From NCBI GenBank assembly GCA_964520905.1, contig CAZFQL010000002.1:134450-198449 (forward strand): a DNA stretch of 64,000 bases. The letters are read 5' to 3'. Under the pieces are notes generated by a model. The model was given only the letters and a program-made list of their open reading frames with translations. It was not told where the DNA came from and made no database searches. The position numbers and the translations under genes are program-made. This DNA comes from an uncultured Chlorobiaceae bacterium. GTDB taxonomy: Bacteria; Bacteroidota; Ignavibacteria; UBA10030; SZUA-254. This document shows positions 4,761 to 43,506 of this stretch, in pieces. Positions within the stretch are counted from its first letter, which is position 1; every line of letters begins with the position of its first letter.

Positions 4761-4910
4761 CGGAAGATTATCGTCAATCTTTATTTCTTTTTAACTTAAT
4801 TCTCGCTTTCCCGAAGATTGAGAACCAAATGACAGTCAAGACTGCTTGTGGGAAAAAATCACACGCAAACCACAATAGAACACGATTATAATTCGATACT
4901 ATCCTATCCT

Positions 4911-4955
4911 GCGGAAAAAAACAAGCCACAAACATCTATCAGATGTCTATGGCTT
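4911..4955 (-). terminator. Rho-independent terminator downstream of tRNA-Met
   Basis: Nested hairpin aagcca/tggctt with inner acatct-atc-agatgt, followed on the minus strand by a T7 run. It lies immediately 3' of the tRNA. Confidence 0.55.
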
Positions 4956-4958
4956 AAG

Positions 4959-5032
4959 TGGGCCCTGTAGGACTTGAACCTACGACCCGCAGATTATGAG
5001 TCTGCTGCTCTAACCAACTGAGCTAAGGGCCC
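4959..5032 (-). tRNA. tRNA-Met (anticodon CAU; elongator type, could alternatively be lysidine tRNA-Ile2)
   Basis: Minus strand reads GGGCCCT-TA-GCTC-AGTTGGTTA-GAGC-A-GCAGA-CTCATAA-TCTGC-GGGTC-GTAGG-TTCAAGT-CCTAC-AGGGCCC-A. This is a canonical cloverleaf with a 7 bp acceptor stem, U8, a TPsiC loop and anticodon CAT. There is no GGG/CCC anticodon stem, so it is not the initiator. CCA is not encoded. Confidence 0.85.
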
Positions 5033-5288
5033 CTTCGATTTTACGTTCTATTCATCAAAATCGACTAAAATATACCACTTTTTGAGCTCAATTCAAAGAG
5101 TTTTGAAGAAAAAAAATCATCATTGACTCAATTGCAGGAATTTCATATATTAAACTAATGAATTTTATTTGGAATCACCCGCATTTGTATATAAAAGTCA
5201 ATCTATTATCACAGTCTACGCTTTTGGGAGGTAGCAATTCCCAGAACACATCGTCTTTTAAGCAGACCAAACATTCACTTTAAGGGGA

Positions 5289-5690
5289 ATGCCTATGGCT
5301 CGTACGAAATATTCAGAACAATTTTGTGCTTACTGCAACAAAGAAACAAAGATGGTTTTGGTTGGAACCATGGAGGGACAGACGGGAAAAATTTGGTATA
5401 AATGTACTCGCTGCCACTATACAAGTCTTTTAGAAGACAGCATGTCATCTGACCAGATAAACGGTAAGCTTGATCCGTTAACCGCAACGGTGTATAAACC
5501 GTGCCAGTGTTTCAAAATTGGAGAAGCAATCTTCCACAGCGAGTGGAACGATGTTGGCAAAGTATTAAGTAAATTAAAAACATCCGATGGAAGCCATGCA
5601 ATCGTCGTTTCTTTCGCGAAGCTGGGACAAAGAAAATTAATTGAAAATTTACAAGAAGAACCAATTTTGGAATTAACAACAACGGAGTAA
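5289..5690 (+). CDS. Hypothetical protein with N-terminal CxxC...CxxC zinc-ribbon
   Basis: CAYC-x21-CTRC motif. The ORF sits between the tRNA and rpsU. No recognisable family. Confidence 0.4.
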   Translation: MPMARTKYSEQFCAYCNKETKMVLVGTMEGQTGKIWYKCTRCHYTSLLEDSMSSDQINGKLDPLTATVYKPCQCFKIGEAIFHSEWNDVGKVLSKLKTSDGSHAIVVSFAKLGQRKLIENLQEEPILELTTTE

Positions 5691-5725
5691 CTTATTGAAA
5701 AAACAATCGGAAGGGGGTGAACGGT

Positions 5726-5920
5726 ATGGTTGGTATCATGATCCAGGAAAATGAGAATATCGACCGTGCGATACGAAGATTTAAGAAAAAGTACGAACGC
5801 TCAGGAATTCTGAAGGAAGTAAAAAAACGTTCGTATTTCACCAAACCTTCTGTAAAGAAGCGGATGGAAAAAATCAAAGCTGTCCGCCGCGCTCATAGAA
5901 CTATGATGGAAGAAATGTAA
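5726..5920 (+). CDS. rpsU: 30S ribosomal protein S21
   Basis: MVGIMIQENENIDRAIRRFKKKYERSGILKEVKKRSYFTKPSVKKRMEKIKAVRRAHR aligns with the S21 consensus (E. coli [42 protein letters not shown]...). Start moved to ATG 5726, which is 7 nt after the AAGGGGG RBS, rather than the GTG at 5717. Confidence 0.85.
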   Translation: MVGIMIQENENIDRAIRRFKKKYERSGILKEVKKRSYFTKPSVKKRMEKIKAVRRAHRTMMEEM

Positions 5921-5945
5921 TTGATTATTTCATCATGTAAATTGT

Positions 5946-5982
5946 AAAAAGGGTCGATCTTTGTATCGGCTCTTTTTATTTT
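5946..5982. terminator. Bidirectional rho-independent terminator between convergent rpsU and the yfhO-like gene
   Basis: 8 bp stem gggtcgat/atcggctc (two G-U pairs), with an A5 run on the 5' side and TTTTTATTTT on the 3' side. Confidence 0.5.
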
Positions 5983-5993
5983 GTCTACGACCT

Positions 5994-29489: not shown

Positions 29490-30185
29490 GAAAAAAACTC
29501 TGTATTAGTTAGCTGATATCGTGACAACAGTTCTCATGATATTCTCTCATGCTTACTCCCAGATGGATTTAACAAAATATGCAAAAGTGACCCGTTGGAT
29601 ATCATTGGTTCATTCATTCTGGGCTTCAAAGGTAATTACTTCATACCTGACAGTTTACGAACCGGGCAGGGTTATTGGATTAAACTTAATCAACCAGGGG
29701 AACTCCTTTTGAGCGGAACTTATCCACCATTGCCAAAAACATCAGCTAATAAAATATTGTTGGGATTCAATACAATCACCATATGCGATGGAATAAATAA
29801 CTCCCAATCGCTGTACTTTGGTTCGGGTGAATTGTAAGGATTTACTCCCAGCTTCTTCAAACTGCCACCCAAGCCACCGTCAGGCAGTTTCGATGTAAGG
29901 TTCGGTTCTGGAAGAATGTTAGAATGCCTTGTAGATGTTCCAAACGAAAAATCTGAATACCAAATTTACATTCAGACTGAATCCAGTCCGATTAAAATAT
30001 GTTGTAATATGAAGCCGGAAGAAACTCGGAACTTCGTCATCCGGGATGAGTCAAGCAAGATTTATCCACTTGATAAAAATGGTAGTTTTGTACTCAACAA
30101 AGAAACATTAGAAATCAGAGTACTTACTCTGGCATCTGTGCTTACTCAAATCCTAAACTCGGATTTTTATTTATCACTATTATAA
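29490..30185 (+). pseudogene. Decayed gene for a secreted protein (signal peptide interrupted by a stop, then about 3 frame-shifted fragments)
   Basis: ATG-AAAAAAACTCTGTAT-TAG, followed in frame by LADIVTTVLMIFSHAYSQ, a classic signal peptide. Downstream fragments 29521..29712, 29595..29837 and 29916..30185 lie in different frames. Confidence 0.35.
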
Positions 30186-30390
30186 ATTATATTGTCAGTA
30201 TTGAGAATTCTATTAAAGTTGTAACCATAGCAAAGTTAAGTTTAAAGCCCGCAAATCTAAATGTAATCAATAAATTCACACTTTCTTATTTTAATTGTTT
30301 TCATTAATATTGGCATAATTTTAGAGTAAGATAGGCAGCCCGCTGAATTTATTGTTAAAATATTCTAACCCTTCTTGAAAGGAAAAGAAA

Positions 30391-30867
30391 ATGTCTGACA
30401 AAAGTCGTCGTGATTTTCTAAAAAAATCTTTAGCAATCGGGTCTGTGGCTACCGGACTTTCGACATCAACTTCAAAGGCGTCACCTAAGAATATTTTATC
30501 CGACGACAGGATGGGAGTTTTGGTTGACACAACTGTTTGTGTCGGCTGCCGTAATTGTGAGTGGGCTTGCAAAGATGCTCATAATTTACCTGCCGGTAAT
30601 TTAGATTCCTATGAAGACAGAAAAATTATAGAAACTAAAAGAAGACCTGATCAAACAGCACCCACAGTTGTTAATGAATATCCTCACGGTAAATATTCAA
30701 ATCTTCCCGTCGATGTGAAAGTACAGTGCATGCATTGCGATCACCCGGCTTGTGTCTCTGCTTCCATCGTGGACACTTTTTTAAACATCCTAACGAATTG
30801 GTTGACTGGCATTCAAAAAACCTTTCAGATAACCATGAAGATCATATTTTGTTTGATGACGAAGTAA
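30391..30867 (+). pseudogene. Truncated NrfC/HybA-like Tat-exported 4Fe-4S subunit (N-terminal remnant)
   Basis: Tat motif SRRDFLKKS and a first ferredoxin motif CVGCRNCEWAC. The second motif is degenerate (CMHCDHPACVSAS). After that the reading frame runs into unrelated sequence and stops. Collinear with the intact paralog 32750..33610. Confidence 0.5.
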
Positions 30868-30947
30868 GAAGTTATCCCTTGCTTCATTTAACTAAATTTG
30901 TATAATATTTCATTCAAAGATAAGTAATTAATGAAGGATAATTTAAA

Positions 30948-32114
30948 ATGATTGTATTAATTGTAATTCTTACGATTATTGTATTTGTGATTGTAGATTT
31001 TCTTTTACGAACACTGATGCAAAGAGTACAAAAAGTAAAATTAGAAAAAGAAAGGTCAGAAGCTCTTTATGTCGGATTAAGACTTGATTTTACAAGTGAA
31101 GCAAAATCCCTGAAACGCGTAGAAGTACAAAATCCAAAAGCCAAAATTCTGTGTGTTGATGATGAACCGGTAATTTTGGACAGCTTTAGGAAAATTCTAG
31201 TCGTTGATGGTTACTCTGTCGATACGGTGGAGACCGGGGCAGAAGTTCTTGGACTTATACAAAAACGAGACTATGATTTTGTTTTCACAGATCTTAAGAT
31301 GCCGGAAATGGATGGTGTGGATGTAACAAAAGCTGTGAAACATTTACGTCCCGATATTGATGTAATTGTAATTACCGGTTATGCAGCAGTCGAAACAGCC
31401 GTAGAAACCATGAAGTTTGGTGCTATGGATTATGTGCAAAAACCATTTACCGAAGGTGAATTAATTGAGTTTGTTAACAAATCTCTAATTAAGCGTCAGG
31501 AAAAAATTGAAAAACAGATGAAACCGACTGTACGATTAGTAACAGGTACGACAGCAGAATCTAGTTCGAAGCATGAATTCAATGTACCGGCAGGGGTTTT
31601 TATAGCCCATCAACACACATGGATAACAATTGAGATGAACGGCATAGTACGAATAGGAATTGATGATTTCATAAGAAAAATATTGAGAAAGATCGACGGA
31701 GTTGAGTTACCTAAAATTGGTAGTAAAATTAAGAAAGGAGATTTGTTGTTTACAATAAAACAGGAACATCAGTCATTCGATATTCCTTCTCCAATAAGCG
31801 GAAGAGTTATATCCGTAAATTCTGAACATGCAGAACACCCCGAGTGGATTGTGATAAAGCCCTTCGAGCTTAGCTGGATGTGTTTAATCGAACCTTCAAG
31901 TCTTTCTGAAGAATTACATTACTTAAAAATTGGACGTGAAACCATTGATTGGTACCAACAGGAAATAAATAAGTACAATGAGATTTTAAGAAAAGCTGAA
32001 AAAGAGAAAGAGCAAATTGAATCATCTGGCGAAGGAAATAATGCAGCAGAGAAAGAAAGGTTAGATAAGAAAATTTGGGGGGAGTTTTCGCAAACCTTTC
32101 TCAATAAAAAATAA
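30948..32114 (+). CDS. Membrane-anchored response regulator: N-terminal TM helix + CheY-like receiver + C-terminal GcvH-like (glycine cleavage H-protein fold) domain
   Basis: TM MIVLIVILTIIVFVIVDFLL. REC with DDE pocket, phospho-Asp (FTDLKMP), T (ITGY) and K (QKPF). C-terminal region HQHTWITIEMNGIVRIGIDDF...LPKIGSKIKKGDLLFTIKQ...SPISGRVISVN aligns with GcvH (HEW...G..T.GIT.HAQ..LGD...V.LP.VG..V..G......ESVKA.S.I.APVSG.I..VN). Confidence 0.8.
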   Translation: MIVLIVILTIIVFVIVDFLLRTLMQRVQKVKLEKERSEALYVGLRLDFTSEAKSLKRVEVQNPKAKILCVDDEPVILDSFRKILVVDGYSVDTVETGAEVLGLIQKRDYDFVFTDLKMPEMDGVDVTKAVKHLRPDIDVIVITGYAAVETAVETMKFGAMDYVQKPFTEGELIEFVNKSLIKRQEKIEKQMKPTVRLVTGTTAESSSKHEFNVPAGVFIAHQHTWITIEMNGIVRIGIDDFIRKILRKIDGVELPKIGSKIKKGDLLFTIKQEHQSFDIPSPISGRVISVNSEHAEHPEWIVIKPFELSWMCLIEPSSLSEELHYLKIGRETIDWYQQEINKYNEILRKAEKEKEQIESSGEGNNAAEKERLDKKIWGEFSQTFLNKK

Positions 32115-32168
32115 TAAATTTCAGGTAGTTATATTGTTTTTAAATTTAATATCTAAAATGAGGTAATT

Positions 32169-32705
32169 ATGATTAAATATCTTTTCATTGCGCAAACAAT
32201 ATTCCTTTTAATAGCTGGCGTTTTAAGTGCTCCATTTAAAAAAGGAACTGAATTAGGCAAAGTAGTAACTTCATACAGATCGGAAATAAACTCTACTTTA
32301 GCAACAAGTATCTCCAATGAGGACACCTTGCAAATACCATCTGAATTAAAAATACCCTCCTCTCTTGGGGAGGTTGTATTTCCTCATAAACTCCATCTGG
32401 AAGATTTGGAAATCAAATGTGTAGAGTGTCATCATCAACTTAATGCTAAAAAATTAAATACCCCACATCCAAATTATTTGAAGAATAGTTGCAGCAGTTG
32501 TCATGTTGAATCAGATAAGACCCATAAAAAAATTTATAATTGTACGGTATGCCATCGTTCTCACATTGCAAATATAGCTGACGAAATGCTAAGTAGAAAA
32601 GTAGCCATACATGAAAAATGCTGGCAGTGTCATGAGTCTGAAACAGGTAAGCAAGCAAGTGAAAATTGCGGGATGTGCCACAATGGTAAAAAAACAAAGT
32701 TTTAA
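32169..32705 (+). CDS. Periplasmic pentaheme cytochrome c, c3/c7 family
   Basis: Signal peptide and five CXXCH motifs (CVECH, CSSCH, CTVCH, CWQCH, CGMCH). VVFPHKLH matches the c7/c3 distal-His signature (PpcA VKFPHKAH). Confidence 0.85.
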   Translation: MIKYLFIAQTIFLLIAGVLSAPFKKGTELGKVVTSYRSEINSTLATSISNEDTLQIPSELKIPSSLGEVVFPHKLHLEDLEIKCVECHHQLNAKKLNTPHPNYLKNSCSSCHVESDKTHKKIYNCTVCHRSHIANIADEMLSRKVAIHEKCWQCHESETGKQASENCGMCHNGKKTKF

Positions 32706-32749
32706 TTTTATAATTCTTTTATATAGATTGCATTTCAATAGGAGTTACG

Positions 32750-33610
32750 ATGAACAGAAGAAATTTTATTAGAACAACAGCTACCATTAGTACAGCAGCT
32801 TTACCTCTGGGGAAATTAAATGCTCAGGAGAATAAAGAGAAAAAGGAATTTGTCGGAGTGCTGGTTGATACAACTAGATGCCTCGGATGTAGATTGTGTG
32901 AGGTTGCTTGTTCTGAAGAGCACGGCAATTATGTGCCAGACGTGAAAAATGATCATGCCCTTGAAAAAATTAGAGATACGAGTGAAAAACAGTGGACTGT
33001 TGTGAACAGATTTGAAACCAAAAACGGTGAAGTGTTCGTAAAAAGACAATGTATGCACTGCTGGCAACCAGCATGTACTGCAGCTTGCCTTACTAATGCA
33101 ATGTTTAAAACTAAAGAAGGACCGGTTACTTGGGATGGAGATAAATGTATGGGATGCAGATATTGCATGGTATCCTGCCCATTCGATATTCCCAAATTTG
33201 AATATAACAAATGGAATCCAAAAATCCAGAAATGCAATATGTGTTATGAAAGATTGCAAGAAGGTAAGAAACCAGCCTGTGTACAAGCTTGTCCAAAAGA
33301 TGCCTTATTATTCGGCATTAAAAGAGAACTCATGGAAGTGGCAAGACACCGTGTTTACAGTTATCCTGATAAATATGTCCATAAAATATATGGAGAACAT
33401 GAGGTAGGGGGAACCGGTTGGCTTTATCTTTCAGGAGTTCCGTTTGAGCAAATCGGATTTAGGACAGACCTTGGTACAACTCCATATCCTGAATATACAA
33501 AAGAATTCCTCTTTTCTGTTCCACTTGTTTTATTCGGTGTACCTGCACTATTGTTTGGCTTTAATTTGCTAACGGACAGGAAAAATGAAATAAATAAAAG
33601 GGAGAGATAG
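32750..33610 (+). CDS. Tat-exported 4Fe-4S ferredoxin-type subunit (NrfC/HybA/PsrB-like) with C-terminal TM anchor
   Basis: Tat signal MNRRNFIRTTA. Four Cys clusters: CLGCRLCEVAC, CMHCWQPACTAAC, CMGCRYCMVSCP and CNMCYERLQEGKKPACVQACP. C-terminal helix FLFSVPLVLFGVPALLFGF. Confidence 0.85.
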   Translation: MNRRNFIRTTATISTAALPLGKLNAQENKEKKEFVGVLVDTTRCLGCRLCEVACSEEHGNYVPDVKNDHALEKIRDTSEKQWTVVNRFETKNGEVFVKRQCMHCWQPACTAACLTNAMFKTKEGPVTWDGDKCMGCRYCMVSCPFDIPKFEYNKWNPKIQKCNMCYERLQEGKKPACVQACPKDALLFGIKRELMEVARHRVYSYPDKYVHKIYGEHEVGGTGWLYLSGVPFEQIGFRTDLGTTPYPEYTKEFLFSVPLVLFGVPALLFGFNLLTDRKNEINKRER

Positions 33611-33613
33611 AAA

Positions 33614-34813
33614 ATGATTAATACTGCAGTTTTCAGTGGTGAATTTAAAAGGTTTATTAAGTTTTTTATACAAGAATTAAAACCCCGAGGTAAATGGCTC
33701 ACACCATTTAATGTTATATCTATTCCAATTATACTTTTAGGTCTTGTAATCCTTTTCTTTCGGTTTACTCAGGGGCTTGGATCGGTTACTAATCTTTCTC
33801 AGCAATTTCCATGGGGATTCTGGATTGGGTTTGATGTTGTTACTGGTGTGGCTTTTGCTGGTGGTGCTTATGTTATCACTTTTGTCGTTTATGTAATGAG
33901 AGTTGATAAATATCATTCTATTGTTAGAGTAACAGTTTTAAACGGATTATTGGCTTACATTTTTTACGCTGGCGCATTGGTTTTGGATTTGGGAAGACCT
34001 TGGCATATAATTAATCCAATTATAGGCAACTCGTTTGGTTTTAACTCAGTATTATTTTTAGTCTCGTGGCATTTCATGCTTTACATGATTGCGGAGTTTG
34101 TTGAGTTTTCACCTGTAATCGCAGAATGGGCACATTGGGAGAAAATACGTAAATTTGTTACTGCACTTACTCTTGGAGCTGTCATATTCGGAATTTCACT
34201 TTCAATGTTACACCAGTCAGGTCTTGGCGCGCTCTTTTTAATGGCAAAGCCCAAAATACATCCGCTCTGGTATTCTGAATTTATTCCGATCCTATTTTTT
34301 GTGTCAAGCATTTTTGCCGGTTTATCAATGATAATTTTTGAAGGAACTATAAGCCACAAAGTTTTCAAAGATAAGATTGACCCCAAGAGTCATGGTACAT
34401 TTGATGATATAATTTTTGGTTTAGCAAAAGGGGCCGCCATTTCGATGTTTGTATATTATTTTTTTAAGGCACTTATCTTCATCCATGGAGAAGAATGGGT
34501 TCTTATAAATGATTTTTGGGGCTTCTGGTTCCTTTTAGAAGTGATTGGTTTTGTTCTGATTCCATGTTTTATGTTTGCCTATGGAGTAAAACACAGGAGT
34601 TTAGGTATTATACGAGTTGCATCTGTATTAACCTTAATTGGTATAATTCTCAATAGATTAAATATATCAATCATCACATTTAATTGGACTTCACAGGTAA
34701 GGTATTATCCATCCTGGCAAGAAATAGTAGTGACACTGATGGTTATATTCTCTGAGATTTGGGTCTTCCGATGGGTTGTTACAAGGATGCCTGTATTTCA
34801 GAAATCTCATTAG
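33614..34813 (+). CDS. NrfD/PsrC-family integral membrane quinol-interacting subunit
   Basis: 399 aa, polytopic. Starts 4 bp after the NrfC-like stop. Has the NrfD-family arrangement. Confidence 0.75.
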   Translation: MINTAVFSGEFKRFIKFFIQELKPRGKWLTPFNVISIPIILLGLVILFFRFTQGLGSVTNLSQQFPWGFWIGFDVVTGVAFAGGAYVITFVVYVMRVDKYHSIVRVTVLNGLLAYIFYAGALVLDLGRPWHIINPIIGNSFGFNSVLFLVSWHFMLYMIAEFVEFSPVIAEWAHWEKIRKFVTALTLGAVIFGISLSMLHQSGLGALFLMAKPKIHPLWYSEFIPILFFVSSIFAGLSMIIFEGTISHKVFKDKIDPKSHGTFDDIIFGLAKGAAISMFVYYFFKALIFIHGEEWVLINDFWGFWFLLEVIGFVLIPCFMFAYGVKHRSLGIIRVASVLTLIGIILNRLNISIITFNWTSQVRYYPSWQEIVVTLMVIFSEIWVFRWVVTRMPVFQKSH

Positions 34814-34848
34814 CATAAAATATTCTTTAAAATATAATGGATTAAAAA

Positions 34849-34980
34849 ATGGAAACATATACATACGTAAACATCTTTGAAACAAAAGGACTGGAATATC
34901 TTTTATTAATTTGTTTTCTTGTACTTTTTGTGCTGTTAGTCCGATATCTATCCCCTACGAATAAAAAAAACAGAGACTAG
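34849..34980 (+). CDS. Small single-TM protein (43 aa), possible accessory subunit
   Basis: METYTYVNIFETKGLEYLLLICFLVLFVLLVRYLSPTNKKNRD lies 35 bp after nrfD-like. No strong RBS. Below the size cutoff of the ORF track. Confidence 0.25.
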   Translation: METYTYVNIFETKGLEYLLLICFLVLFVLLVRYLSPTNKKNRD

Positions 34981-35343
34981 AGAATTGACATATAATTGAA
35001 TATCTATTCCGGCTCAGATACTTGTAGCGGATAAAATACAAAATCTCGGTAATTTTGGATGATATTAAATAACGGACGAATTTCTATAAAAGATAAAAAA
35101 ACACGGCTCTGTGTCGTTTTATATAGGTAAAACAATGATTAAATTAGAAAGATGATTAGCTAAGAATTATTAAATGATAATTAACTACACGTAATGATGA
35201 TAAGGAAGATTTGCATCAAGATTTGAATTTTAGTACAGAGCAAGCTTGCAATAATTGTCATGATGATTACTGTTTTCCAAAGCAAAAACCAGGAAAGTTA
35301 GTTGGTAAATAATTAAATTTGAATTGAATAATAATTTCGTAAT

Positions 35344-37215
35344 ATGCTTTTTAAGAAGATTGGTTTTCGGTTAATATTTGCTGTTGCATTAACATCGCTT
35401 GTAATAATTGGCGTGTTTGCGTACTTCAATATCAAATCGCAGAGCAGCAGCTTGATATCTGAAGTTGAGCGACACGCAAACCAGCTTGGTGAAACCGTTA
35501 TATCAAGTACACGTTTTGATATGATGTTAAATCAAAGAGATAGAATTCAACAGACGATTAATTCAATTGGAACGCAGCCGCAAATAAGAGATGTGAGAAT
35601 TATAAATAAAATCGGTGAGATTATTTATTCATCCGATTCTAAAAACATCAATAAAATGGTTGATAAGCGTGCTGAGAGTTGTTATGCCTGCCACTCGGAA
35701 GATCAACCTTTAGAGCAGATATCTATCACCGAGCGAACCCGAATATTCAAGATTCATCCAGACTCCAACCGTGTTCTTGGAATAATTACCCCGATTTACA
35801 ACGAAACATCGTGCTGGCAGGCAAAATGCCACGCGCATCCACAAAATCAAAAAGTTCTCGGTGTACTGGATGTTTCTATATCTCTTGCAGAGGTTGATAA
35901 AGCGATTATTACACGAGAATGGGAAATTGTGATCTTTGCAATCGTTGCAATAATCACTGTCGGATTATTAATAGCTTTCTTCGTAAGGCGCTGGGTATCT
36001 AATCCCGTTAATGATTTATTAAATGCGACACAACAGGTTAGTCAGGGTAATTTGAATTATGCCATTAAAGATCTCAGCGATGATGAAATAGGGAAACTTG
36101 GTTCTTCATTTAACAATATGACAAAGAAACTTGCAGAAGCACGCATGCAGCTTTTTCAATCGGATAAAATGGCTTCGCTCGGGCGGCTTGCTGCAGGTGT
36201 TGCACACGAAATAAATAACCCTCTTACTGGAGTTCTTACATACAGCAGTTTTCTTTTAAAAAGAACAAAGAATAATCCCGAACTTCAAGAAGATCTGAAT
36301 ATTATTGTCAGAGAAACTATACGAAGCCGGGAAATTGTAAAAAGCTTATTAGATTTTGCACGTCAATCAGTTCCCAGAAAAAGCAGTGCAAGTATAAATG
36401 AAATTATTGACAAAGCAATCATTGTGGTTGAAAAACAGTTGTCGTTCAAAAAAATAAAAATTATAAGACAGTCGGAAAATAAACTTCCCCAAATAACTGT
36501 CGATTCAAATCAAATTCAGCAAGTATTCATTAATCTTTTTGTAAATGCTTCAGATGCAATTGGCAAAGACGGCGGAACAATAACAATAGTTAAAAAACAA
36601 ATTTCTCTTTCCCCATTTGGAGTTGCTCAAATAAAGAAAGCATCATGTCCAAAACGTCATAGTCTAATTGATAATGATTTTAAGATTGACGGACTACCAG
36701 CATTGAAAGTGAAAGTGGTTTCTGCCGGTAAGGAGGGAATAATTCATCTTGATCCAGTTTACGGGAAACATCGTAACTATTATTATCCTGATGTTAAAAT
36801 AGATAAAGACACAAAATTTGTTTGTCCAGATTGCGATACATCTCTTGTTCAACTGGACAAATTCTGCCCCAAATGTGGTGCACCTGCTCTTGCATTCGAG
36901 ATCAACGGACAGGGTGTTTACGAAGTATGCTCTTCCGAAAACAGTAACTGGGAGAAATGGGATTTTATTGACTCTTCAGGATTAAAAGATTATATAGAAA
37001 TAAAAATCAGCGACACGGGTTGCGGAATAAGTAAAGATGATCTTCAAAAAATCTTTGAGCCATTTTTCTCAACCAAAGGACAAAAAGGTACCGGACTTGG
37101 TTTGGCTGTTATCTGGGGAATAATTGATAATCATAACGGAACAATAAACGTTGAAAGCGAGGAAGGAAAGGGTACAACTTTCGTTGTCCGACTTCCTCTT
37201 ACGCAGCAGAAGTAA
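35344..37215 (+). CDS. Sensor histidine kinase with c-type-heme-binding periplasmic domain (TM-periplasmic-TM-HAMP-HisKA-HATPase_c with zinc-ribbon insertion)
   Basis: TM1 at about 8-28 and TM2 IVIFAIVAIITVGLLIAFFV. The periplasmic segment carries CYACH (CXXCH) and CWQAKCH (CX4CH). H-box is AHEINNPL, N-box NLFVNASDA, G-box DTGCGI...GTGLGL. A roughly 120 aa insert between N and G1 contains CPDCD-x11-CPKCG. Confidence 0.85.
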   Translation: MLFKKIGFRLIFAVALTSLVIIGVFAYFNIKSQSSSLISEVERHANQLGETVISSTRFDMMLNQRDRIQQTINSIGTQPQIRDVRIINKIGEIIYSSDSKNINKMVDKRAESCYACHSEDQPLEQISITERTRIFKIHPDSNRVLGIITPIYNETSCWQAKCHAHPQNQKVLGVLDVSISLAEVDKAIITREWEIVIFAIVAIITVGLLIAFFVRRWVSNPVNDLLNATQQVSQGNLNYAIKDLSDDEIGKLGSSFNNMTKKLAEARMQLFQSDKMASLGRLAAGVAHEINNPLTGVLTYSSFLLKRTKNNPELQEDLNIIVRETIRSREIVKSLLDFARQSVPRKSSASINEIIDKAIIVVEKQLSFKKIKIIRQSENKLPQITVDSNQIQQVFINLFVNASDAIGKDGGTITIVKKQISLSPFGVAQIKKASCPKRHSLIDNDFKIDGLPALKVKVVSAGKEGIIHLDPVYGKHRNYYYPDVKIDKDTKFVCPDCDTSLVQLDKFCPKCGAPALAFEINGQGVYEVCSSENSNWEKWDFIDSSGLKDYIEIKISDTGCGISKDDLQKIFEPFFSTKGQKGTGLGLAVIWGIIDNHNGTINVESEEGKGTTFVVRLPLTQQK

Positions 37216-37224
37216 CTTTAATGT

Positions 37225-38043
37225 ATGAGTAAAACAGCAAACATATTGGTTATTGATGATGAGAAGGTAATAATAGATGGAGTAGTTAAAATCTGCTCAC
37301 TCGAAAATTACTCAATTGATGTTGCTTTAAATATAAAAACAGCCATTGAAAAGATCTCAAAAAAATATTACTCAGTTATTATCTGCGATATTATGATGCC
37401 CGATGGTGATGGTTTCCAGGTTTTAAATGAGCTTCAAACGAGAAATATAGACAGTGCTTTAATAATGATGACAGGTTATTCGACTGTAGAAAACGCTGTT
37501 AATTCACTTTACCGGGGTGCGATAGATTTTATTCCCAAACCATTTACGGTTGACGAGTTGCTGAGTTCAATTTATCGCGCAAACAAATATCAGCAAATTA
37601 AAGAAAAGCAAAAACAATCCTCAAGAGATAATCATAAAGTTGAACTATTTTACGTTGAATGTCCGTCAAAATATTATCGCCTCGGTCGTTCAAGCTGGTT
37701 GTTTGAAGAAAGAGACGGTTCAGTTTTAATAGGTGTTTGCGATTTTTTTCTTTCAACGATTGATTCAATAACGGAAATCGAATTTCTTGAGCTTGAAGAA
37801 GAAATTGCACAAGGCATTAGCTGCCTTACAATCAAATCAAGCGATGAGAGAATACATAAAATTCATTCTCCCGTTTCAGGCAGAATAATTGATGTGAATA
37901 AAAATCTTAAATTAGTTTCTAATCTGATCGAAAAAGATCCGTACTTTGAAGGATGGGTATATCGCGTTATACCTCATGACCTTGGTTATGAAATTAAAAA
38001 TTTGGTTCCTTGCAGTTCAGATAGAATGCAGATTCGTACTTAA
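37225..38043 (+). CDS. Response regulator: receiver domain + GcvH-like C-terminal domain (soluble)
   Basis: REC with ILVIDDEKV, ICDIMMPDGDG, MMTGY and PKPF. C-terminus YYRLGRSSWLFEERDGSVLIGVCDF...CLTIKSSDERIHKIHSPVSGRIIDVNKNLKLVSNLIEKDPYFEGWVYRVIP aligns with GcvH, including PY.GW. Starts 10 bp after the kinase. Confidence 0.8.
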   Translation: MSKTANILVIDDEKVIIDGVVKICSLENYSIDVALNIKTAIEKISKKYYSVIICDIMMPDGDGFQVLNELQTRNIDSALIMMTGYSTVENAVNSLYRGAIDFIPKPFTVDELLSSIYRANKYQQIKEKQKQSSRDNHKVELFYVECPSKYYRLGRSSWLFEERDGSVLIGVCDFFLSTIDSITEIEFLELEEEIAQGISCLTIKSSDERIHKIHSPVSGRIIDVNKNLKLVSNLIEKDPYFEGWVYRVIPHDLGYEIKNLVPCSSDRMQIRT

Positions 38044-38079
38044 CAAGAGTTCAATAAATTATTTTTTAGGAGAAACGTC

Positions 38080-39243
38080 ATGGCATTATTAATACTAGCA
38101 GTAATTATATTCATCATTGCGGATATCTTAATCCGGATGATCAGCAAGCGCTTAACTGAAAATAAGTTAAAGAAAGAACGTGAAAGTGCATTGCAGGAAA
38201 GTCTTAAGTTAGATTTTACCAGCGAAGCAAAAACATTAAAACGTGCTGAAGTCCAAAATCCAAAAGCCAAAATCCTTTGTGTTGATGATGAAGAAGTTAT
38301 TCTTGGCAGCTTCAGAAAAATTCTTGTGCTTGATGGTTACGCTATAGATACTGTAGAAACAGGTCAGGAAGCTCTTGGTTTGATACAGAAGCATCATTAT
38401 GATTTTGTTTTTACAGATCTTAAAATGCCGCTTATGGATGGAGTTGAAGTGACAAAATCAGTAAAGCATTTACGCCCCGATATAGATGTAATTATTATTA
38501 CCGGTTATGCTTCTGTGGAAACTGCCGTTGAAACAATGAAATACGGTGCAATGGATTATGTTCAAAAGCCTTTCACTGAAGACGAGCTTCTGGCATTTGT
38601 GAAGAAAATATTAATTAAAAGACAGGATAAAATTCAAAAACAGCTTAAACCAAAAGTGCATATCACTCATCTTCCAGCATCGCACGATTTTATTAAAGGT
38701 GAATTTTCAATCCCTGGCGGTGTGTTCATATCTAAGAATCATACGTGGTTTAGCATCAATCAAGAAGGAATTGCCAAAATTGGTATAGATGACTTTGCTA
38801 AAAAACTAATTGGTAAAATAGATTCGATTGAACTTCCAAATCTTGGGATGAACGTAAAAGCCGGTCAGCCCTTATTTACGGTAAAACAAGGAGACAGAAG
38901 TGTTGCTTTTAATTCTCCCATTACCGGAAAAGTATCACAGATAAATACCGTTTTGCTGAGAAATCTTGTGGCACTGGAACTGAGTTCTTATGAAAGAAAT
39001 TGGATTTGCGCTCTCGATACCGATAAAATAGATGACGAAATTAAAGGAATGTGCATCGGTAAATCTGCTGTTGCTCTATTCCAGAATGATATTGAAAAGT
39101 GCAAAATTTTATTGAAAGATCTATTGAAATCCGAAAAACGCGAAGGTGAGTATATTGAAGAAGGTCAGATTTACATCGGGCAGCTTGAAGAACTTTCTGA
39201 TGTGAATTGGCAGAAAGTAGTCGCGGAATTTTTTAGAAGATAA
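38080..39243 (+). CDS. Membrane-anchored response regulator: TM + receiver + GcvH-like domain (close paralog of 30948..32114)
   Basis: The receiver domain is nearly identical at protein level and clearly similar at DNA level to 30948..32114. C-terminus NHTWFSINQEGIAKIGIDDFAKKLIGKIDSIELPNLGMNVKAGQPLFTVKQ...SPITGKVSQIN...YERNWI is GcvH-like. Confidence 0.8.
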   Translation: MALLILAVIIFIIADILIRMISKRLTENKLKKERESALQESLKLDFTSEAKTLKRAEVQNPKAKILCVDDEEVILGSFRKILVLDGYAIDTVETGQEALGLIQKHHYDFVFTDLKMPLMDGVEVTKSVKHLRPDIDVIIITGYASVETAVETMKYGAMDYVQKPFTEDELLAFVKKILIKRQDKIQKQLKPKVHITHLPASHDFIKGEFSIPGGVFISKNHTWFSINQEGIAKIGIDDFAKKLIGKIDSIELPNLGMNVKAGQPLFTVKQGDRSVAFNSPITGKVSQINTVLLRNLVALELSSYERNWICALDTDKIDDEIKGMCIGKSAVALFQNDIEKCKILLKDLLKSEKREGEYIEEGQIYIGQLEELSDVNWQKVVAEFFRR

Positions 39244-39273
39244 AAACAATTTTACTCCTATCCGCTTAAATAA

Positions 39274-39312
39274 CCTTCAAGGTCGCAGTTAAAGACCTTG
39301 AGGGTTTTTTGT
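39274..39312 (+). terminator. Rho-independent terminator ending the kinase/regulator operon
   Basis: 11 bp stem ccttcaaggtc-gcagttaaa-gaccttgaggg followed by TTTTTT. Confidence 0.75.
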
Positions 39313-39927
39313 TATTATTATAAATAATATTCTTCTCGCACAATTCCTGTAGATTCCAACTATTATGAATATCAAAAAAAAATCGTTGTCTATGTATATC
39401 TTTATATTCAAATTCTACGTTTATTTTAGACGAAGCATAACTTGATGGAATAGCGGCAATTGTTCCAATTCACCACCCCTCTAAACAATTCTATGGATTA
39501 GAATCAAATCACACCTTAATGCTAGAACGTTTGGAGAAAGAAATTATCCACAAACTCTGTCATATTTTCGAATTGATACACTGCCATCAGTTTGAGTGCA
39601 CGATGCGTTCGTCAACTTATGTCGAGGAGATCGACTTGAAACAGCACCTGCCCTGTTCATCTTGCCGGCGAATTCTGCGGGACAAAGTCAATCGTTTATA
39701 CCGCGAAGTCGGTATCGGTAAGAATGCTGTGAAATGAGTATTAAGACATAAATATCTCAAATCTGCAAAAATCCCTCTTTTTGCTTTCATTATTGATAAC
39801 TTTTTGCCTAAAATCCAGCATTAAATTCCATTATTTTATCGAAATGAAAAGATAAATTGATGGAATGATTCTTGTAATAATTAGCACCGATAACATTTAA
39901 CTTCACATCATCTGACGAAATATAATT

Positions 39928-42900
39928 ATGGATACAAAAAAAAATCGCACAATGGTAACAATCGACGGTAACGAAGCCGCCGCTTACGTTGCGCATAAAT
40001 TAAACGAAGTAATTGCAATTTACCCGATTACCCCGTCATCCCCCATGGGTGAATGGTCAGATGAATGGTCTGCACTCGGAAGAAAAAATTTATGGGGAAC
40101 GATTCCCCATGTGATCGAGATGCAAAGCGAAGGCGGAGCTGCCGGTGCTGTACATGGCGCACTTCAAACAGGCGCACTTTCAACTACATTCACATCGGCA
40201 CAGGGACTTCTCTTAATGATCCCAAATATGTTTAAGATTGCCGGCGAGCTTACACCCACAGTTTTCCATATTGCGGCGCGAACCGTTGCCACTCATGCCC
40301 TTTCGATATTCGGCGAGCATAGCGATGTTTACGCTGCCCGATCTACAGGTTTTGCTATGCTTGCATCCAATTCGATTCAAGAAATTATGGATTTCGCCCT
40401 CATCTCACAAGCGGCAACTCTGGAAGCGCGGGTACCATTCATGCATTTCTTCGATGGTTTTCGATCTTCACATGAAGTTATGAAAATTGAGCAGCTCGAT
40501 GAAAGCGATATGCGCACGATGATAGATGATGAATTGATTCGTGCACACCGTAAGCGCTCAATGTCGCCGGAACATCCTGTCCTTCGCGGCACTGCACAAA
40601 ATCCGGATGTATATTTTCAGGCTCGCGAGACTGTAAATCCATTTTACGACGCTTGCCCTGGTATCGTTCAAAAAGTGATGGATAAATTTGAAAAAGTTGT
40701 TGGAAGAAAATATAAACTCTTTCAGTATTTCGGCGCTCCTGATGCAGATCGAATTATAATAATGATGGGATCCGGGGCTGAAACAGCACAAGAAACAGTT
40801 GAATATCTGAATGCCCGCGGTGAAAAAATCGGTCTGCTCAAAGTACGTCTCTATAGGCCCTTCTCTGTCGAACACTTTCTGAATGAAATACCGAAAACTG
40901 TTAAGACTATTGTCGTGCTGGACCGGACGAAAGAACCGGGCGCAACGGCTGAACCACTGCACCTCGATGTCATTACAGCAATTAGCGAAGCCTTCACAAA
41001 CGGGAAACTTCCCTTGCAATCTTATCCCCGTATAATTGGCGGACGGTATGGACTTTCATCGAAGGAATTCACTCCGGCTATGGTCAAGGGTGTATTTGAT
41101 GAATCAAAAAAATCGCAACCGAAAAATCATTTCACTATCGGCATACTCGACGACATCACAAAAACCAGCCTTGATTACGATCCGTCTTTCACCACGGAAC
41201 CGGATGATGTTGTTCGTGCCATTTTCTATGGTTTAGGGGCTGATGGCACAGTAAGCGCAAATAAAAACTCAATCAAAATTATCGGTGAAGACACGGAGTT
41301 TTTTGCCCAGGGATATTTTGTATACGATTCAAAGAAATCGGGTTCAACCACAACATCGCACTTGCGCTTCGGTCCACGTCCGATACATTCTACTTATTTG
41401 ATAGATAAGGCAAGCTTCATGGCATGCCATCAATGGTTCTTCCTTGAAAAATATGATGTTTTAAGATCTGCAATCTCCGGAGCTACATTTCTGCTGAACA
41501 GTCTCTACGGTCCCGAAGAAGTATGGGGAAAACTTCCGCGCCACATTCAGAAAGAAATTATTGAGAAGCGTATAAAATTTTATGTGATCGATGCATACAA
41601 AGTCGCGCGCCAGACCGGCATGGGCGGCAGAATCAATACGATCATGCAAACCTGTTTCTTTGCGATCTCGGGCGTATTACCGAAAGACGAAGCGATAGCG
41701 GCTATAAAAAAATCGATAGAAAAAACATACGGCAAGAAAGGCGCCGATATCGTAACGCAAAACTTCGAGGCTGTCGATCTGACTCTTGCTAATCTCTTCC
41801 AGGTAAAAATTCCGAATAACGTCACCAGCACCGTTGAAATGCCGCCTACTGTCTCAGAGAAAGCTCCAAGCTATGTACGGGAAGTTCTGGCAAAAATTAT
41901 CACTAACGATGGAGACAACCTGCCCGTGAGTACAATGCCGGTGGATGGAACATTTCCAACGGCGACTGCACAATGGGAAAAGAGAAATATCGCACTAGAG
42001 ATTCCAACATGGGAAGCAGAAATCTGTATCCAATGCAATAAATGTGTAATGGTCTGCCCACATGCCACTATACGAGCCAAGGTTTATGATCCAAAAGAAT
42101 TGGCAAATGCACCTTCAACATTTAAGTCGATCGACTTCAAAGGCGTAGAATACAAAGGAATGAAATATACGATTCAAATTGCGCCGGAAGATTGCACCGA
42201 GTGCGGGTTGTGTGTGGACGTCTGCCCTGCAAAGAGTAAGTCGGAAGCAAAGGTTAAAGCAATCAATATGAAACCGCAACCTCCGATTCGTGAATCAGAA
42301 CGCGCCAATTATGATTTCTTCCTTGCAATACCGGAAATCGATAGGCGCACAGTTAAAGTTGATACAATCAAAGGGTCTCAATTCCTCCAACCATTGTTTG
42401 AATACTCCGGTGCCTGTGCCGGATGCGGTGAAACACCCTATGTGAAACTTGTAAGTCAACTCTTTGGCGACCGGGCAATCATTGCTAACGCAACCGGATG
42501 TTCATCGATCTATGGAGGCAATCTTCCAACTACGCCATGGAGTATAAACAACGACGGTCGCGGACCGACATGGTCTAATTCGCTGTTTGAAGACAATGCG
42601 GAATTCGGTTTGGGGATGCGTTTAACAGTCGATAAACATACCGAAATGGCAAAAGAATTAGCGCTAAAGCTTTCTAATGAGATCGGCGATAAGCTCGTCA
42701 ATGATATAATGAATGCCGATCAATCGAATGAAGCCGGAATTTATGATCAGCGAGAACGCGTAAAACTGCTGAAAGAAAAAATTAGTACCGTAAATACTCC
42801 CGAAGCAAAAAGTTTACTGAGTATCTGCGACAATCTCGTGAAGCGCAGTATCTGGATAATCGGCGGTGACGGTTGGGCATACGATATAGGTTATGGCGGA

Positions 42901-43506
42901 CTCGATCATGTGATTGCATCTGGGAAGAATGTGAATATCCTTGTTTTGGATACCGAAGTTTACTCAAACACTGGTGGACAGATGTCGAAAGCGACAGCCC
43001 GCTCTGCAATAGCAAAGTTCGCCGCTAACGGTAAACCTACGGCGAAGAAAGATCTCGGCATGCTCGCTATGGCATATGGTAATGTGTACGTTGCATCTGT
43101 AGCAATGGGGTCGAACGATTTACAAACACTTCGCGCTTTTCTGGAAGCTGAGGCATACGATGGACCATCAATTATTATTGCCTATAGTCACTGCATTGCC
43201 CACGGAATCAATATGACTAAGGGAATGCAGAACCAGAAATTAGCGGTAGACACCGGTTATTGGTCTTTGTACCGTTACAATCCGATGTTAGTGAAAGAAG
43301 GGAAAAACCCGCTTAAACTCGATTCGAAAGAACCGAAATTGCCGCTAAAAGAATTTACATCGATGGAAACGCGATTCAAAATGTTAGAAAAGAGTTATCC
43401 AGAGCGTGCAAAGGCACTCGGGGTTCTTGCGCAAAACGATGTAAATGCGCGATGGAAAATATATGAGCATCTTGCTCAAGATGGAAATTCGGAAAATAAA
43501 AAATAA
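39928..43506 (+). CDS. nifJ: Pyruvate:ferredoxin (flavodoxin) oxidoreductase, single-polypeptide PFOR
   Basis: 1192 aa. N-terminal TIDGNEAAAYVAHKLNEVIAIYPITPSSPMGEW. Two ferredoxin motifs (CIQCNKCVMVCPH, CTECGLCVDVCP). TPP domain GGDGWAYDIGYGGLDH. Confidence 0.95.
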   Translation: MDTKKNRTMVTIDGNEAAAYVAHKLNEVIAIYPITPSSPMGEWSDEWSALGRKNLWGTIPHVIEMQSEGGAAGAVHGALQTGALSTTFTSAQGLLLMIPNMFKIAGELTPTVFHIAARTVATHALSIFGEHSDVYAARSTGFAMLASNSIQEIMDFALISQAATLEARVPFMHFFDGFRSSHEVMKIEQLDESDMRTMIDDELIRAHRKRSMSPEHPVLRGTAQNPDVYFQARETVNPFYDACPGIVQKVMDKFEKVVGRKYKLFQYFGAPDADRIIIMMGSGAETAQETVEYLNARGEKIGLLKVRLYRPFSVEHFLNEIPKTVKTIVVLDRTKEPGATAEPLHLDVITAISEAFTNGKLPLQSYPRIIGGRYGLSSKEFTPAMVKGVFDESKKSQPKNHFTIGILDDITKTSLDYDPSFTTEPDDVVRAIFYGLGADGTVSANKNSIKIIGEDTEFFAQGYFVYDSKKSGSTTTSHLRFGPRPIHSTYLIDKASFMACHQWFFLEKYDVLRSAISGATFLLNSLYGPEEVWGKLPRHIQKEIIEKRIKFYVIDAYKVARQTGMGGRINTIMQTCFFAISGVLPKDEAIAAIKKSIEKTYGKKGADIVTQNFEAVDLTLANLFQVKIPNNVTSTVEMPPTVSEKAPSYVREVLAKIITNDGDNLPVSTMPVDGTFPTATAQWEKRNIALEIPTWEAEICIQCNKCVMVCPHATIRAKVYDPKELANAPSTFKSIDFKGVEYKGMKYTIQIAPEDCTECGLCVDVCPAKSKSEAKVKAINMKPQPPIRESERANYDFFLAIPEIDRRTVKVDTIKGSQFLQPLFEYSGACAGCGETPYVKLVSQLFGDRAIIANATGCSSIYGGNLPTTPWSINNDGRGPTWSNSLFEDNAEFGLGMRLTVDKHTEMAKELALKLSNEIGDKLVNDIMNADQSNEAGIYDQRERVKLLKEKISTVNTPEAKSLLSICDNLVKRSIWIIGGDGWAYDIGYGGLDHVIASGKNVNILVLDTEVYSNTGGQMSKATARSAIAKFAANGKPTAKKDLGMLAMAYGNVYVASVAMGSNDLQTLRAFLEAEAYDGPSIIIAYSHCIAHGINMTKGMQNQKLAVDTGYWSLYRYNPMLVKEGKNPLKLDSKEPKLPLKEFTSMETRFKMLEKSYPERAKALGVLAQNDVNARWKIYEHLAQDGNSENKK

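Follow-up and report, generated by a model that had tools for sequence, protein, structure and literature searches.

A histidine kinase with two candidate heme c sites in a predicted periplasmic Cache domain, encoded beside cytochrome and REC-GcvH genes in an Ignavibacteria-type bacterium

A sensor histidine kinase that is encoded among cytochrome genes and carries cytochrome-like motifs in its own periplasmic domain raises the question of whether the kinase itself binds heme, and of what it would sense with it. Such a gene lies in the DNA analyzed here, a stretch of 64,000 nucleotides (nt; hereafter the window) from an uncultured Chlorobiaceae bacterium (GTDB lineage Bacteria; Bacteroidota; Ignavibacteria; UBA10030; SZUA-254), corresponding to positions 134,450 to 198,449 of contig CAZFQL010000002.1 in GenBank assembly GCA_964520905.1. 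An original prediction, made from the letters of the window, had proposed that covalent heme lets this kinase read the redox state of the periplasmic cytochrome pool. The explanation that best accounts for our observations as a whole, which we regard as moderately probable, is a two-heme Cache kinase that is redox-driven by periplasmic cytochromes and signals to regulators composed of a receiver (REC) and a GcvH-like domain. The central features, in window coordinates, are as follows.

35344..37215, plus strand: sensor histidine kinase of 623 amino acids, with a first transmembrane helix (TM1), a predicted periplasmic two-heme Cache domain, a second transmembrane helix (TM2), HAMP, HisKA, and HATPase_c with an insert (translation of the open reading frame (ORF), Pfam)
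35431..35919, plus strand: periplasmic single-Cache (PDC/PAS-like) sensor domain, residues ~30-192 (AlphaFold2 (AF2), Foldseek, family profile)
35680..35694, plus strand: candidate heme-binding motif 1, C113-Y-A-C116-H117 (CYACH, residues 113-117; regular expression, counting)
35812..35838, plus strand: candidate heme-binding motif 2, C157-WQAK-C162-H163 (CWQAKCH, residues 157-163, nt 35812-35832), followed by A164-H165 (regular expression, alignment)
35521..35523, plus strand: Met60, candidate distal (switchable) ligand of heme 2 (conservation; alignment to 3b42)

Both motifs were located by regular expression and by counting exactly where the original prediction had placed them. The periplasmic domain contains four Cys in all, every one of them inside motif 1 or motif 2. 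Two C-x(2-4)-CH motifs occurred in 1.2e-4 of 300,000 residue shuffles of the periplasmic region; based on this frequency and on the near-invariance of the motifs in relatives, a chance or low-complexity origin was rejected. A search with residues 1-226 returned 120 homologs from Ignavibacteria, Melioribacteraceae, Calditrichia, Aminicenantes, Deltaproteobacteria, and Methylomirabilales, a number that does not reflect family size, since homologs were retrieved as fragments of up to ~1.7 times the query length. Every one of these homologs that spans the relevant positions retains both motifs. Family size was taken instead from a profile built from 25 sensor domains and run against 1.84 billion cluster representatives, which matched 2,826 clusters at E ≤ 1e-3, 1,445 at E ≤ 1e-10, and 431 at E ≤ 1e-30. 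Among the matches listed, 145 further representatives likewise keep the motifs.

For conservation counts, all retrieved sequences were aligned to the profile without requiring the motifs, and 241 relatives, down to ~30% identity, span the domain. In motif 1, C113 and C116 are each present in all 241 and H117 in 240; in motif 2, the counts are 239 for C157, 239 for C162, and ~239 for H163. Met60 is retained in 240 of the 241 and His165 in 232. Orthologs that lack the motif while retaining the rest of the sensor domain, which the original prediction had named as evidence against heme, were thus not the pattern observed, the motifs being kept in 239-241 of 241. The spacing of motif 1 is invariably CXXCH, and motif 2 is mostly CX4CH but also occurs as CX2CH, CX3CH, and CX5CH, with the terminal C-H dipeptide kept throughout. 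A spacing of two to five residues with a constant C-H is the pattern of a heme c site, and CX2-4CH is the signature of the Geobacter heme sensors. Sequence conservation thus supports the view that motifs 1 and 2 behave as genuine heme c attachment sites, and covalent heme c at both sites appears very likely.

An AF2 model of the sensor domain, based on an alignment of 100 sequences, gave a predicted local distance difference test (pLDDT) score of 85.7 and a predicted template modeling (pTM) score of 0.75. In this model, a helix comprising residues 3-61 (TM1 and alpha1) is followed by a second helix, strands 81-88 and 92-96, a poorly defined segment that contains motif 1, strands 132-136 and 143-152, a short helix at 155-158 where motif 2 begins, a strand at 171-180, and the TM2 helix. 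The model is free of cofactors; pLDDT dips at both motif loops and falls to 60-68 at the motif 1 segment. Foldseek searches of the PDB retrieved the WalK Cache domain (E 6e-7), GSU0935 of Geobacter sulfurreducens (3b42; E 1.4e-5, 21% identity), and then KinD, DctB, CitA, and DcuS, so that AF2 and Foldseek together predict a single Cache/PDC fold.

The same Geobacter protein was recovered by sequence. Against the PDB, the family profile matched 3b42 at E 4.3e-5 and 3b47 at E 0.027, and the single query sequence matched 3b42 weakly (E 0.26). In these alignments, motif 2 (CX4CH) falls onto the CXXCH of GSU0935 and GSU0582 (3b42 and 3b47), in the short element that precedes the last beta strand. 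The position of H163 corresponds in the profile alignment to chain residue 110 of 3b42, which is His144 of full-length GSU0935, and Met60 aligns with chain Met26 (+34, or Met60 of GSU0935, its distal ligand). Between the aligned blocks, residues 91-127 form a segment of 37 residues compared with 20 in GSU0935; this segment, ~17 residues longer, holds motif 1. Neither one-heme Geobacter sequence has an equivalent of His165. The domain is not covered by any model in Pfam or NCBIfam. Among 82 full-length family representatives, most of which are plain HAMP-HisKA-HATPase kinases and a few of which have extra PAS, GGDEF, or EAL domains, 43 match PF21563 at E ≤ 1e-3, with a best value of 4.7e-10. 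Because the query falls below the PF21563 gathering score, yet these 43 representatives match that model and the family profile matches 3b42, we file its sensor domain as an apparent divergent two-heme branch of the GSU0935-type heme c sCache sensors, and not as a model-defined member.

The remainder of the protein has the layout of a complete kinase.

35359..35427, plus strand: TM1, residues ~6-28, running on as periplasmic helix alpha1 to residue 61 (hydropathy; AF2 helix 3-61)
35920..35988, plus strand: TM2, residues ~193-215 (hydropathy peak at 192-215; AF2 helix 182-216)
35980..36132, plus strand: HAMP, residues 213-263 (Pfam PF00672, E 2.4e-12)
36178..36363, plus strand: HisKA, the dimerization and histidine phosphotransfer (DHp) domain, residues 279-340 (Pfam PF00512, E 2.8e-15)
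36496..37203, plus strand: catalytic ATP-binding (CA) domain (Pfam HATPase_c; motifs; Foldseek)
36595..36987, plus strand: Cys-rich all-beta insert of ~130 residues (418-548) between the N-box strand and the G1 box (ortholog alignment, AF2)

Hydropathy peaks and the long helices of the AF2 model agree with the two transmembrane (TM) helices that the original prediction had placed on either side of the periplasmic domain. The N terminus is basic (KK..R) and RR directly follows TM2, a positive-inside pattern, and because of these basic residues we place residues ~30-192 in the periplasm. By its position in the H-box AHEINNPL, His288 (nt 36205-36207) is the phospho-acceptor. The Pfam match to HATPase_c covers the C-terminal part only of the CA domain (residues 548-620), and the H-, N- (397-405), G1 (557-562), F (571-578), and G2 (582-587) boxes are all intact; Foldseek matched the region to the CA domains of ZraS, LvrB, WalK, and HK853. 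With HAMP, a DHp domain carrying His288, and a CA domain with N, G1, F, and G2 boxes, the protein is a class I (HisKA-type) transmembrane kinase. In databases, proteins of this kinase family and the associated regulators carry only the labels "HAMP domain-containing histidine kinase" and "response regulator".

The gene neighborhood of the kinase was compared among relatives. A scan of one genome per GTDB species yielded 364 relatives, and the loci examined were the best 80, from metagenome-assembled genomes (MAGs) of Ignavibacteria, Melioribacter, and Calditrichaceae (individual loci are numbered with the prefix L). In 62 of the 63 loci with enough sequence, HmcB-like and HmcC-like genes lie directly upstream of the kinase on the same strand, and all 63 have a REC-GcvH and a TM-REC-GcvH gene directly downstream. 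A ~380-residue cytochrome with 13 CXXCH motifs is encoded directly before the kinase in 66 of 71 loci, its gene ending ~5-70 nt before the kinase start in most of them. L083 shows a different order, with the kinase, two REC-GcvH genes, a c7-like cytochrome, Fer4_11, and NrfD. The association of the two-heme kinase with an NrfCD/HmcBC-type module is a strong rule in this clade and not family-wide, and in other phyla the two-heme sensor is also coupled to cytoplasmic Hdr-type modules, as in L082. The self-contained redox-sensing unit of the original prediction is thus found again as a conserved association of the kinase with HmcB/HmcC-like proteins, cytochromes, and REC-GcvH regulators, whereas a redox signal for this unit is not established.

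Several side observations concern these loci. In ~25 of them, a divergent paralogous operon that includes a second kinase with both heme motifs adjoins the main unit, for example, on the minus strand of L006 (567-5944) and also in L007, L008, L011, L013, L018, and L022-L025. It encodes a small TM protein, a TM-GcvH-like protein without REC, an HmcB-like protein seemingly without a twin-arginine translocation signal, an HmcC-like protein, a 239-residue Cys-rich protein, the second two-heme-sensor kinase, which is without the insert, and a REC protein. In L082 (1-8000), a family member at 39% identity lies directly 3' of genes for HdrA-like, FlpD, and CCG-domain (HdrB-like) proteins and is followed by regulators that include a sigma54 activator. 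In the closest relative, L001 (PNNN01000051.1), the unit is preceded (4365-6405) by a MarR-family regulator and a 493-residue multiheme cytochrome with a type IX secretion system (Por) sorting tail, which hints at extracellular electron transfer; this region is absent from the window, where minus-strand glycosyltransferase-like genes lie upstream instead. L001 was deposited as a "Chlorobiaceae bacterium" MAG and nearly all other close relatives as Ignavibacteriaceae or Ignavibacteriales, so that the label of L001 is probably a labeling or binning issue. A pyruvate:ferredoxin oxidoreductase gene (39928-43506 in the window) follows the regulators in the window, L001, and L009. The G+C content is 0.34-0.36 across the cytochrome, kinase, and regulator block (window 30001-40000), compared with 0.39-0.45 on both sides.

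Directly downstream of the kinase, the window encodes the two conserved regulators, which the original prediction had also recognized.

37225..38043, plus strand: cytoplasmic REC + GcvH-like regulator, 272 residues (Pfam Response_reg and GCV_H; synteny 63/63)
38080..39243, plus strand: membrane-anchored TM + REC + GcvH-like regulator, 387 residues (Pfam; synteny)

The first of these begins 9 nt past the kinase stop codon and the next intergenic gap is 36 nt, distances that suggest co-transcription; the 37225..38043 regulator is a probable phosphoryl acceptor of the kinase. Together with a third regulator at 30948-32114, these proteins (37225-38043 and 38080-39243) have a GcvH-like domain as their only output, with Pfam GCV_H matches at 1e-15 to 1e-19, and two of the three have an N-terminal TM helix. 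In an approximate pairwise alignment to E. coli GcvH, the position of the lipoyl-Lys appears to be E, D, or H. The regulators have >1,100 homologs annotated just as "response regulator", and our literature search on REC-GcvH regulators found no relevant paper. Because there is no DNA-binding domain and two of the three proteins are membrane-anchored, they probably act through protein-protein contacts at the membrane; that such an output is likelier than transcription control is speculation on our part.

Upstream of the kinase, the window departs from the arrangement that prevails among relatives.

30391..30867, plus strand: 5' remnant of an ancestral hmcB' gene (NCBIfam HmcB positions 1-125 only)
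30948..32114, plus strand: TM + REC + GcvH-like regulator, first gene of a cassette (Pfam; the same gene precedes the cytochrome, HmcB, and HmcC genes in L079 and L083)
32169..32705, plus strand: pentaheme c3/c7-type cytochrome, 178 residues, five CXXCH (Pfam Cytochrome_C7 1.2e-10, Cytochrom_CIII 2.8e-9)
32750..33610, plus strand: HmcB/NrfC-like 4Fe-4S subunit (NCBIfam HmcB 332.5 bits, cut-off 420; HybA 218.8; Pfam Fer4_11)
33614..34813, plus strand: HmcC/NrfD-like integral membrane quinone-interacting subunit (NCBIfam HmcC 401.6 bits, cut-off 550; Pfam NrfD)
34849..34980, plus strand: 43-residue single-TM ORF, HmcD-like by position (sequence; weak HmcD match, E 0.038, 14 versus 34)
35247..35312, plus strand: 3' remnant of a 13-heme cytochrome gene, 21 codons and a stop, CNNCHDDYCFPKQKPGKLVGK* (compared with the C terminus ...CNGCHENFVYPKQKPGILVGK of L001 8830-9969)

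The neighbors named in the original prediction, a five-CXXCH cytochrome, an HmcB/NrfC-like iron-sulfur subunit, and an HmcC/NrfD-like subunit upstream, and two REC + GCV_H proteins downstream, were all confirmed by sequence, Pfam, and NCBIfam. The quinol:cytochrome module that it described is present, but is a secondary replacement of the usual 13-heme partner. The hmcB' remnant has 88% nucleotide identity to L001 6447-7106 up to a break, homology to relatives stopping near nt 30815, and at the protein level it is 80-90% identical to the full-length gene of L001, L002, L004, L019, and L021. Nucleotide homology to L001 picks up again at 35276, and the block of kinase and two regulators is 91% identical to that of L001. 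Window positions 30816-35275 stand in place of L001 7107-9932, which holds the remainder of hmcB', followed by hmcC' and the 13-heme gene. The inserted five-gene cassette (~4.4 kb) encodes a TM-REC-GcvH protein, the five-heme cytochrome, the HmcB-like protein, of which an N-terminal segment aligns to the signal-bearing start of HmcB, the HmcC-like protein, and the 43-residue TM ORF. A gap of 530 nt with a terminator-like hairpin separates hmcC from the kinase. The same type of cassette adjoins orthologous kinases in L079 and L059 and follows the kinase and two regulators in L083. The 43-residue ORF, unlisted among the ORFs of the window, has a near-identical counterpart over its first ~32 residues after the NrfD gene of L083 (14091-14222), where the kinases are only 50% identical, and it is called as a gene in L084. 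Judged from these sequence comparisons, the five-heme/HmcB/HmcC cassette of the window is a secondary replacement of the canonical hmcB'-hmcC'-cytochrome operon.

An assembly chimera was rejected as the origin of this arrangement, given that an independent Logan assembly (L084) repeats the junction of HmcC, the 43-residue ORF, and the kinase; L084 covers the right junction only. A true Hmc operon was likewise rejected, since the scores listed above for HmcB, HmcC, and HmcD all fall below their equivalog cut-offs, and no HmcE or HmcF was seen between 30.4 and 39.9 kb of the window. The neighbors nevertheless resemble Hmc and Nhc/Ohc-type complexes (family knowledge and NCBIfam) in that they best match HmcB, HmcC, and, weakly, HmcD, and include a multiheme c3-type cytochrome. 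Unlike in the Hmc complexes of sulfate reducers, the cytochrome has 5 hemes here and 13 in relatives, not 16, and the host is Ignavibacteria-type. Our literature search on rrf1/hmc, and on kinases in the survey of Desulfuromonadia cytochromes, found nothing relevant.

How could such a kinase work? Heme 2 (C157-x4-C162-H163) would be the counterpart of the single sensory heme of GSU0935 and GSU0582 and, by analogy, would have His163 as its proximal ligand and Met60 as its distal ligand in the reduced state. Heme 1 (C113-x2-C116-H117), in the added loop, would probably be bis-His ligated, with His165 as a candidate sixth ligand, and would let electrons in, relay them, or tune the potential. Periplasmic cytochromes would oxidize or reduce the hemes and thus change the ligation of Met60. 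The likely electron partner would be the 13-heme cytochrome encoded directly upstream in most genomes, and the five-heme/HmcB/HmcC module here; an alternative trigger would be the displacement of Met60 by nitric oxide (NO) or carbon monoxide (CO). The helix that continues into TM1 has Met60 at its end away from the membrane, and TM2 follows the last strand, so that a ligand switch would reach HAMP and the kinase: the change in ligation would move alpha1/TM1 and beta5/TM2, and through HAMP this would set kinase activity. Phosphoryl groups would then pass to the REC-GcvH-like regulators encoded directly downstream. We consider it somewhat probable that the physiological signal is not a gas but the redox state of the periplasmic electron-transfer chain. 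As for the covalent, redox-reading heme of the original prediction, its structural part is well supported by the heme-like motifs and by the match of motif 2 and Met60 to the GSU0935 site, and the nature of the signal sensed is the part that is not established.

Several observations weigh against this mechanism. Redox sensing is not proven, given that one-heme relatives bind NO and CO and that heme Cache domains linked to signaling modules are reported to act as NO sensors. The query scores 23.5 bits against PF21563, where the gathering score is 27, and 13.2 against 24.1 bits (E 0.12) for the Tll0287-like PF11845; an assignment to DUF3365/Tll0287 proper was rejected on the latter score. The ~5 relatives with a CX2CH motif 2 have no His165 but do have motif 1, so that His165 cannot be a universal sixth ligand. 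Among distant members, the neighbors in L081 are unrelated and those in L082 are Hdr-like (HdrA/FlpD/CCG). The usual 13-heme partner has been lost in this genome. Our literature search found neither an experimental demonstration of heme in this protein or any two-heme member nor a study characterizing any two-heme member. The last point, together with the general capacity of Cys pairs in periplasmic domains for redox-active disulfide formation, favors a reading in which the Cys/His motifs bind no heme and instead form periplasmic disulfides or a Zn/Cu/Fe site serving as a thiol- or metal-based switch. We consider this reading very improbable: the His that follows the second Cys is conserved to the same degree as the cysteines, changes in spacing (CX2-5CH) keep the C-H dipeptide, motif 2 and the Met ligand superpose in sequence on a crystallographically proven heme site, and the same genomes encode many c-type cytochromes in the same operon.

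A more serious contender, although still unlikely in our judgment, retains the two-heme architecture but takes the signal to be a diatomic gas, NO or possibly CO, that displaces Met60 from heme 2, and not the redox state of the cytochrome pool. This family has an invariant distal Met, in GSU0582 and GSU0935 Met60 gives way to NO whether the heme is oxidized or reduced and to CO in the reduced state, and NO-sensor properties were reported for heme Cache domains on signaling modules (PMC12889525). Yet the conserved partners of the kinase are cytochromes and HmcBC-like quinone modules and not NO-detoxifying genes, the presence of a second heme is more readily understood if it relays electrons than if it binds gas, and the authors of the Geobacter studies themselves prefer redox-linked ligand switching. 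It is a little less probable again that the kinase is functionally uncoupled from the genes upstream of it in this genome, their adjacency being an accident of the cassette replacement that destroyed the native partner operon. The replacement of L001 7107-9932 by 30816-35275, with only a 5' piece of hmcB' and 21 terminal codons of the 13-heme gene left behind, would fit such an accident, as would the 530-nt gap with its terminator-like hairpin between hmcC and the kinase. Against this, the same type of cassette is found beside orthologous kinases in L079, L059, and L083, the cassette carries a REC-GcvH regulator of its own, and the arrangement recurs in the independent assembly L084.

An unusual feature of the kinase lies on the cytoplasmic side, in the insert of its CA domain. 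The insert contains a Zn-ribbon pattern, C494-x2-C497-x10-C508-x2-C511 (nt 36823-36876), with sub-threshold Pfam matches to Zn_ribbon only, and 61 full-length orthologs all share C435, C494, C497, C508, C511, and C529. AF2 predicts beta strands (pLDDT 82.6). A Foldseek search of the PDB with the CA domain and insert gave matches limited to ~73 residues of the kinase CA core and none for the insert. Present in only 2 of the 82 full-length family representatives, the insert is confined to the ortholog clade of Ignavibacteria and Calditrichia. A bolder version of the redox mechanism, which we regard as improbable when taken with all its parts, is a "wire plus switch" kinase that controls respiratory electron flow without transcription. 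Heme 1 would take electrons straight from the cognate multiheme cytochrome of the HmcBC-type quinone module, heme 2 would turn the redox state into a Met60 ligand switch, membrane-anchored REC-GcvH-like proteins would bind and gate the same respiratory complex post-translationally, and the Zn-ribbon insert in the ATP-binding domain would provide a second, cytoplasmic redox or metal input.

Heme c periplasmic PAS/Cache sensors, including ones with two motifs, have been in the literature since 2006-2013, so that the principle is not new; the present kinase is an uncharacterized two-heme variant with unusual partners and an unusual insert in its ATPase domain. To our knowledge, no extracytoplasmic sensor domains other than those of the heme c Cache/PAS type are known to bind a cofactor covalently, and the members studied all have one heme. 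In DcrA of Desulfovibrio vulgaris, reportedly described by Fu, Wall, and Voordouw in 1994 as a c-type heme methyl-accepting protein, a periplasmic c-type heme is likewise said to reside in a transmembrane transducer of an anaerobe, proposed as a sensor of redox potential or oxygen, but in a methyl-accepting chemotaxis protein (MCP) and not in a kinase. Like the present sensor, those of GSU0935 and GSU0582 (PDB 3B42 and 3B47; PF21563) lie between two TM helices with HAMP after them and share the Cache/PDC fold, the alignment position of the heme motif, and the distal Met60. Unlike it, they have one heme, a CXXCH motif, and an MCP output; the kinase has CX4CH at that position, a second CXXCH in the ~17-residue-longer loop, the extra His165, and a histidine kinase output. 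Both Geobacter domains are high-spin when oxidized and low-spin when reduced, through binding of Met60, with midpoint potentials of -156 (GSU0582) and -251 mV (GSU0935), and in GSU0935 the ligands are His144 (proximal) and Met60 (distal). Both bind NO in either redox state and CO when reduced, displacing Met60 each time, and a redox-linked ligand switch is the mechanism favored by the authors of that work. A preprint by Deshpande et al. 2026 (PMC12889525) groups the GSU0582/0935 domains with DUF3365/Tll0287 as "sCache_heme" and reports NO-sensor properties for heme Cache domains fused to signaling modules. The sCache_heme domains (PF11845) are similarly fused to kinases, MCPs, and GGDEF/EAL modules, but are described with one CXXCH; a two-heme form is not mentioned, and "two heme" and "diheme" have 0 occurrences in that preprint.

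G. sulfurreducens has 12 signal transducers with CX2-4CH motifs, of which GSU0591 and GSU0599 have two each, and the two-motif sensors noted in the literature are GSU0599, GSU0591, and Adeh_2011 and Adeh_3383 of Anaeromyxobacter dehalogenans. These four, compared here by description only, are described as GSU0935-like with an additional heme motif, as is the case for the present kinase, but REC-GcvH partners or an ATPase-domain insert are not reported for them. GSU0599 is annotated as a two-component system protein and, according to locus-tag numbering, adjoins GSU0598, or BccR, which lies beside the CbcBA quinol oxidoreductase operon of G. sulfurreducens; CbcBA is induced as redox potential falls. 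There, too, a two-component regulator adjoins an inner-membrane quinone:cytochrome oxidoreductase. However, BccR is a sigma54-dependent DNA-binding activator, in contrast to the REC-GcvH-like regulators without a DNA-binding domain found here, CbcBA is a bc-type complex and not NrfCD/HmcBC-like, and the kinase is not discussed in the paper.

In conclusion, our analysis defines a large predicted two-heme branch of heme c Cache sensors (the 1,445 clusters at 50% identity, E ≤ 1e-10) with a fixed candidate ligand set of two Cys-Cys-His motifs, Met60, and His165. In Ignavibacteria, Melioribacter, and Calditrichaceae, members of this branch have a near-invariant partnership with a 13-heme cytochrome, HmcBC-type quinone modules, and regulators that have no output other than a GcvH-like domain. 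The kinase and its partners provide a concrete and tractable system for studying how the redox state of a periplasmic or extracellular cytochrome chain may be sensed by the bacteria that respire with it, and bear also on the role of the non-DNA-binding REC-GcvH regulator. If the bolder mechanism were true, a two-component system would steer respiratory electron flow directly, without transcription.

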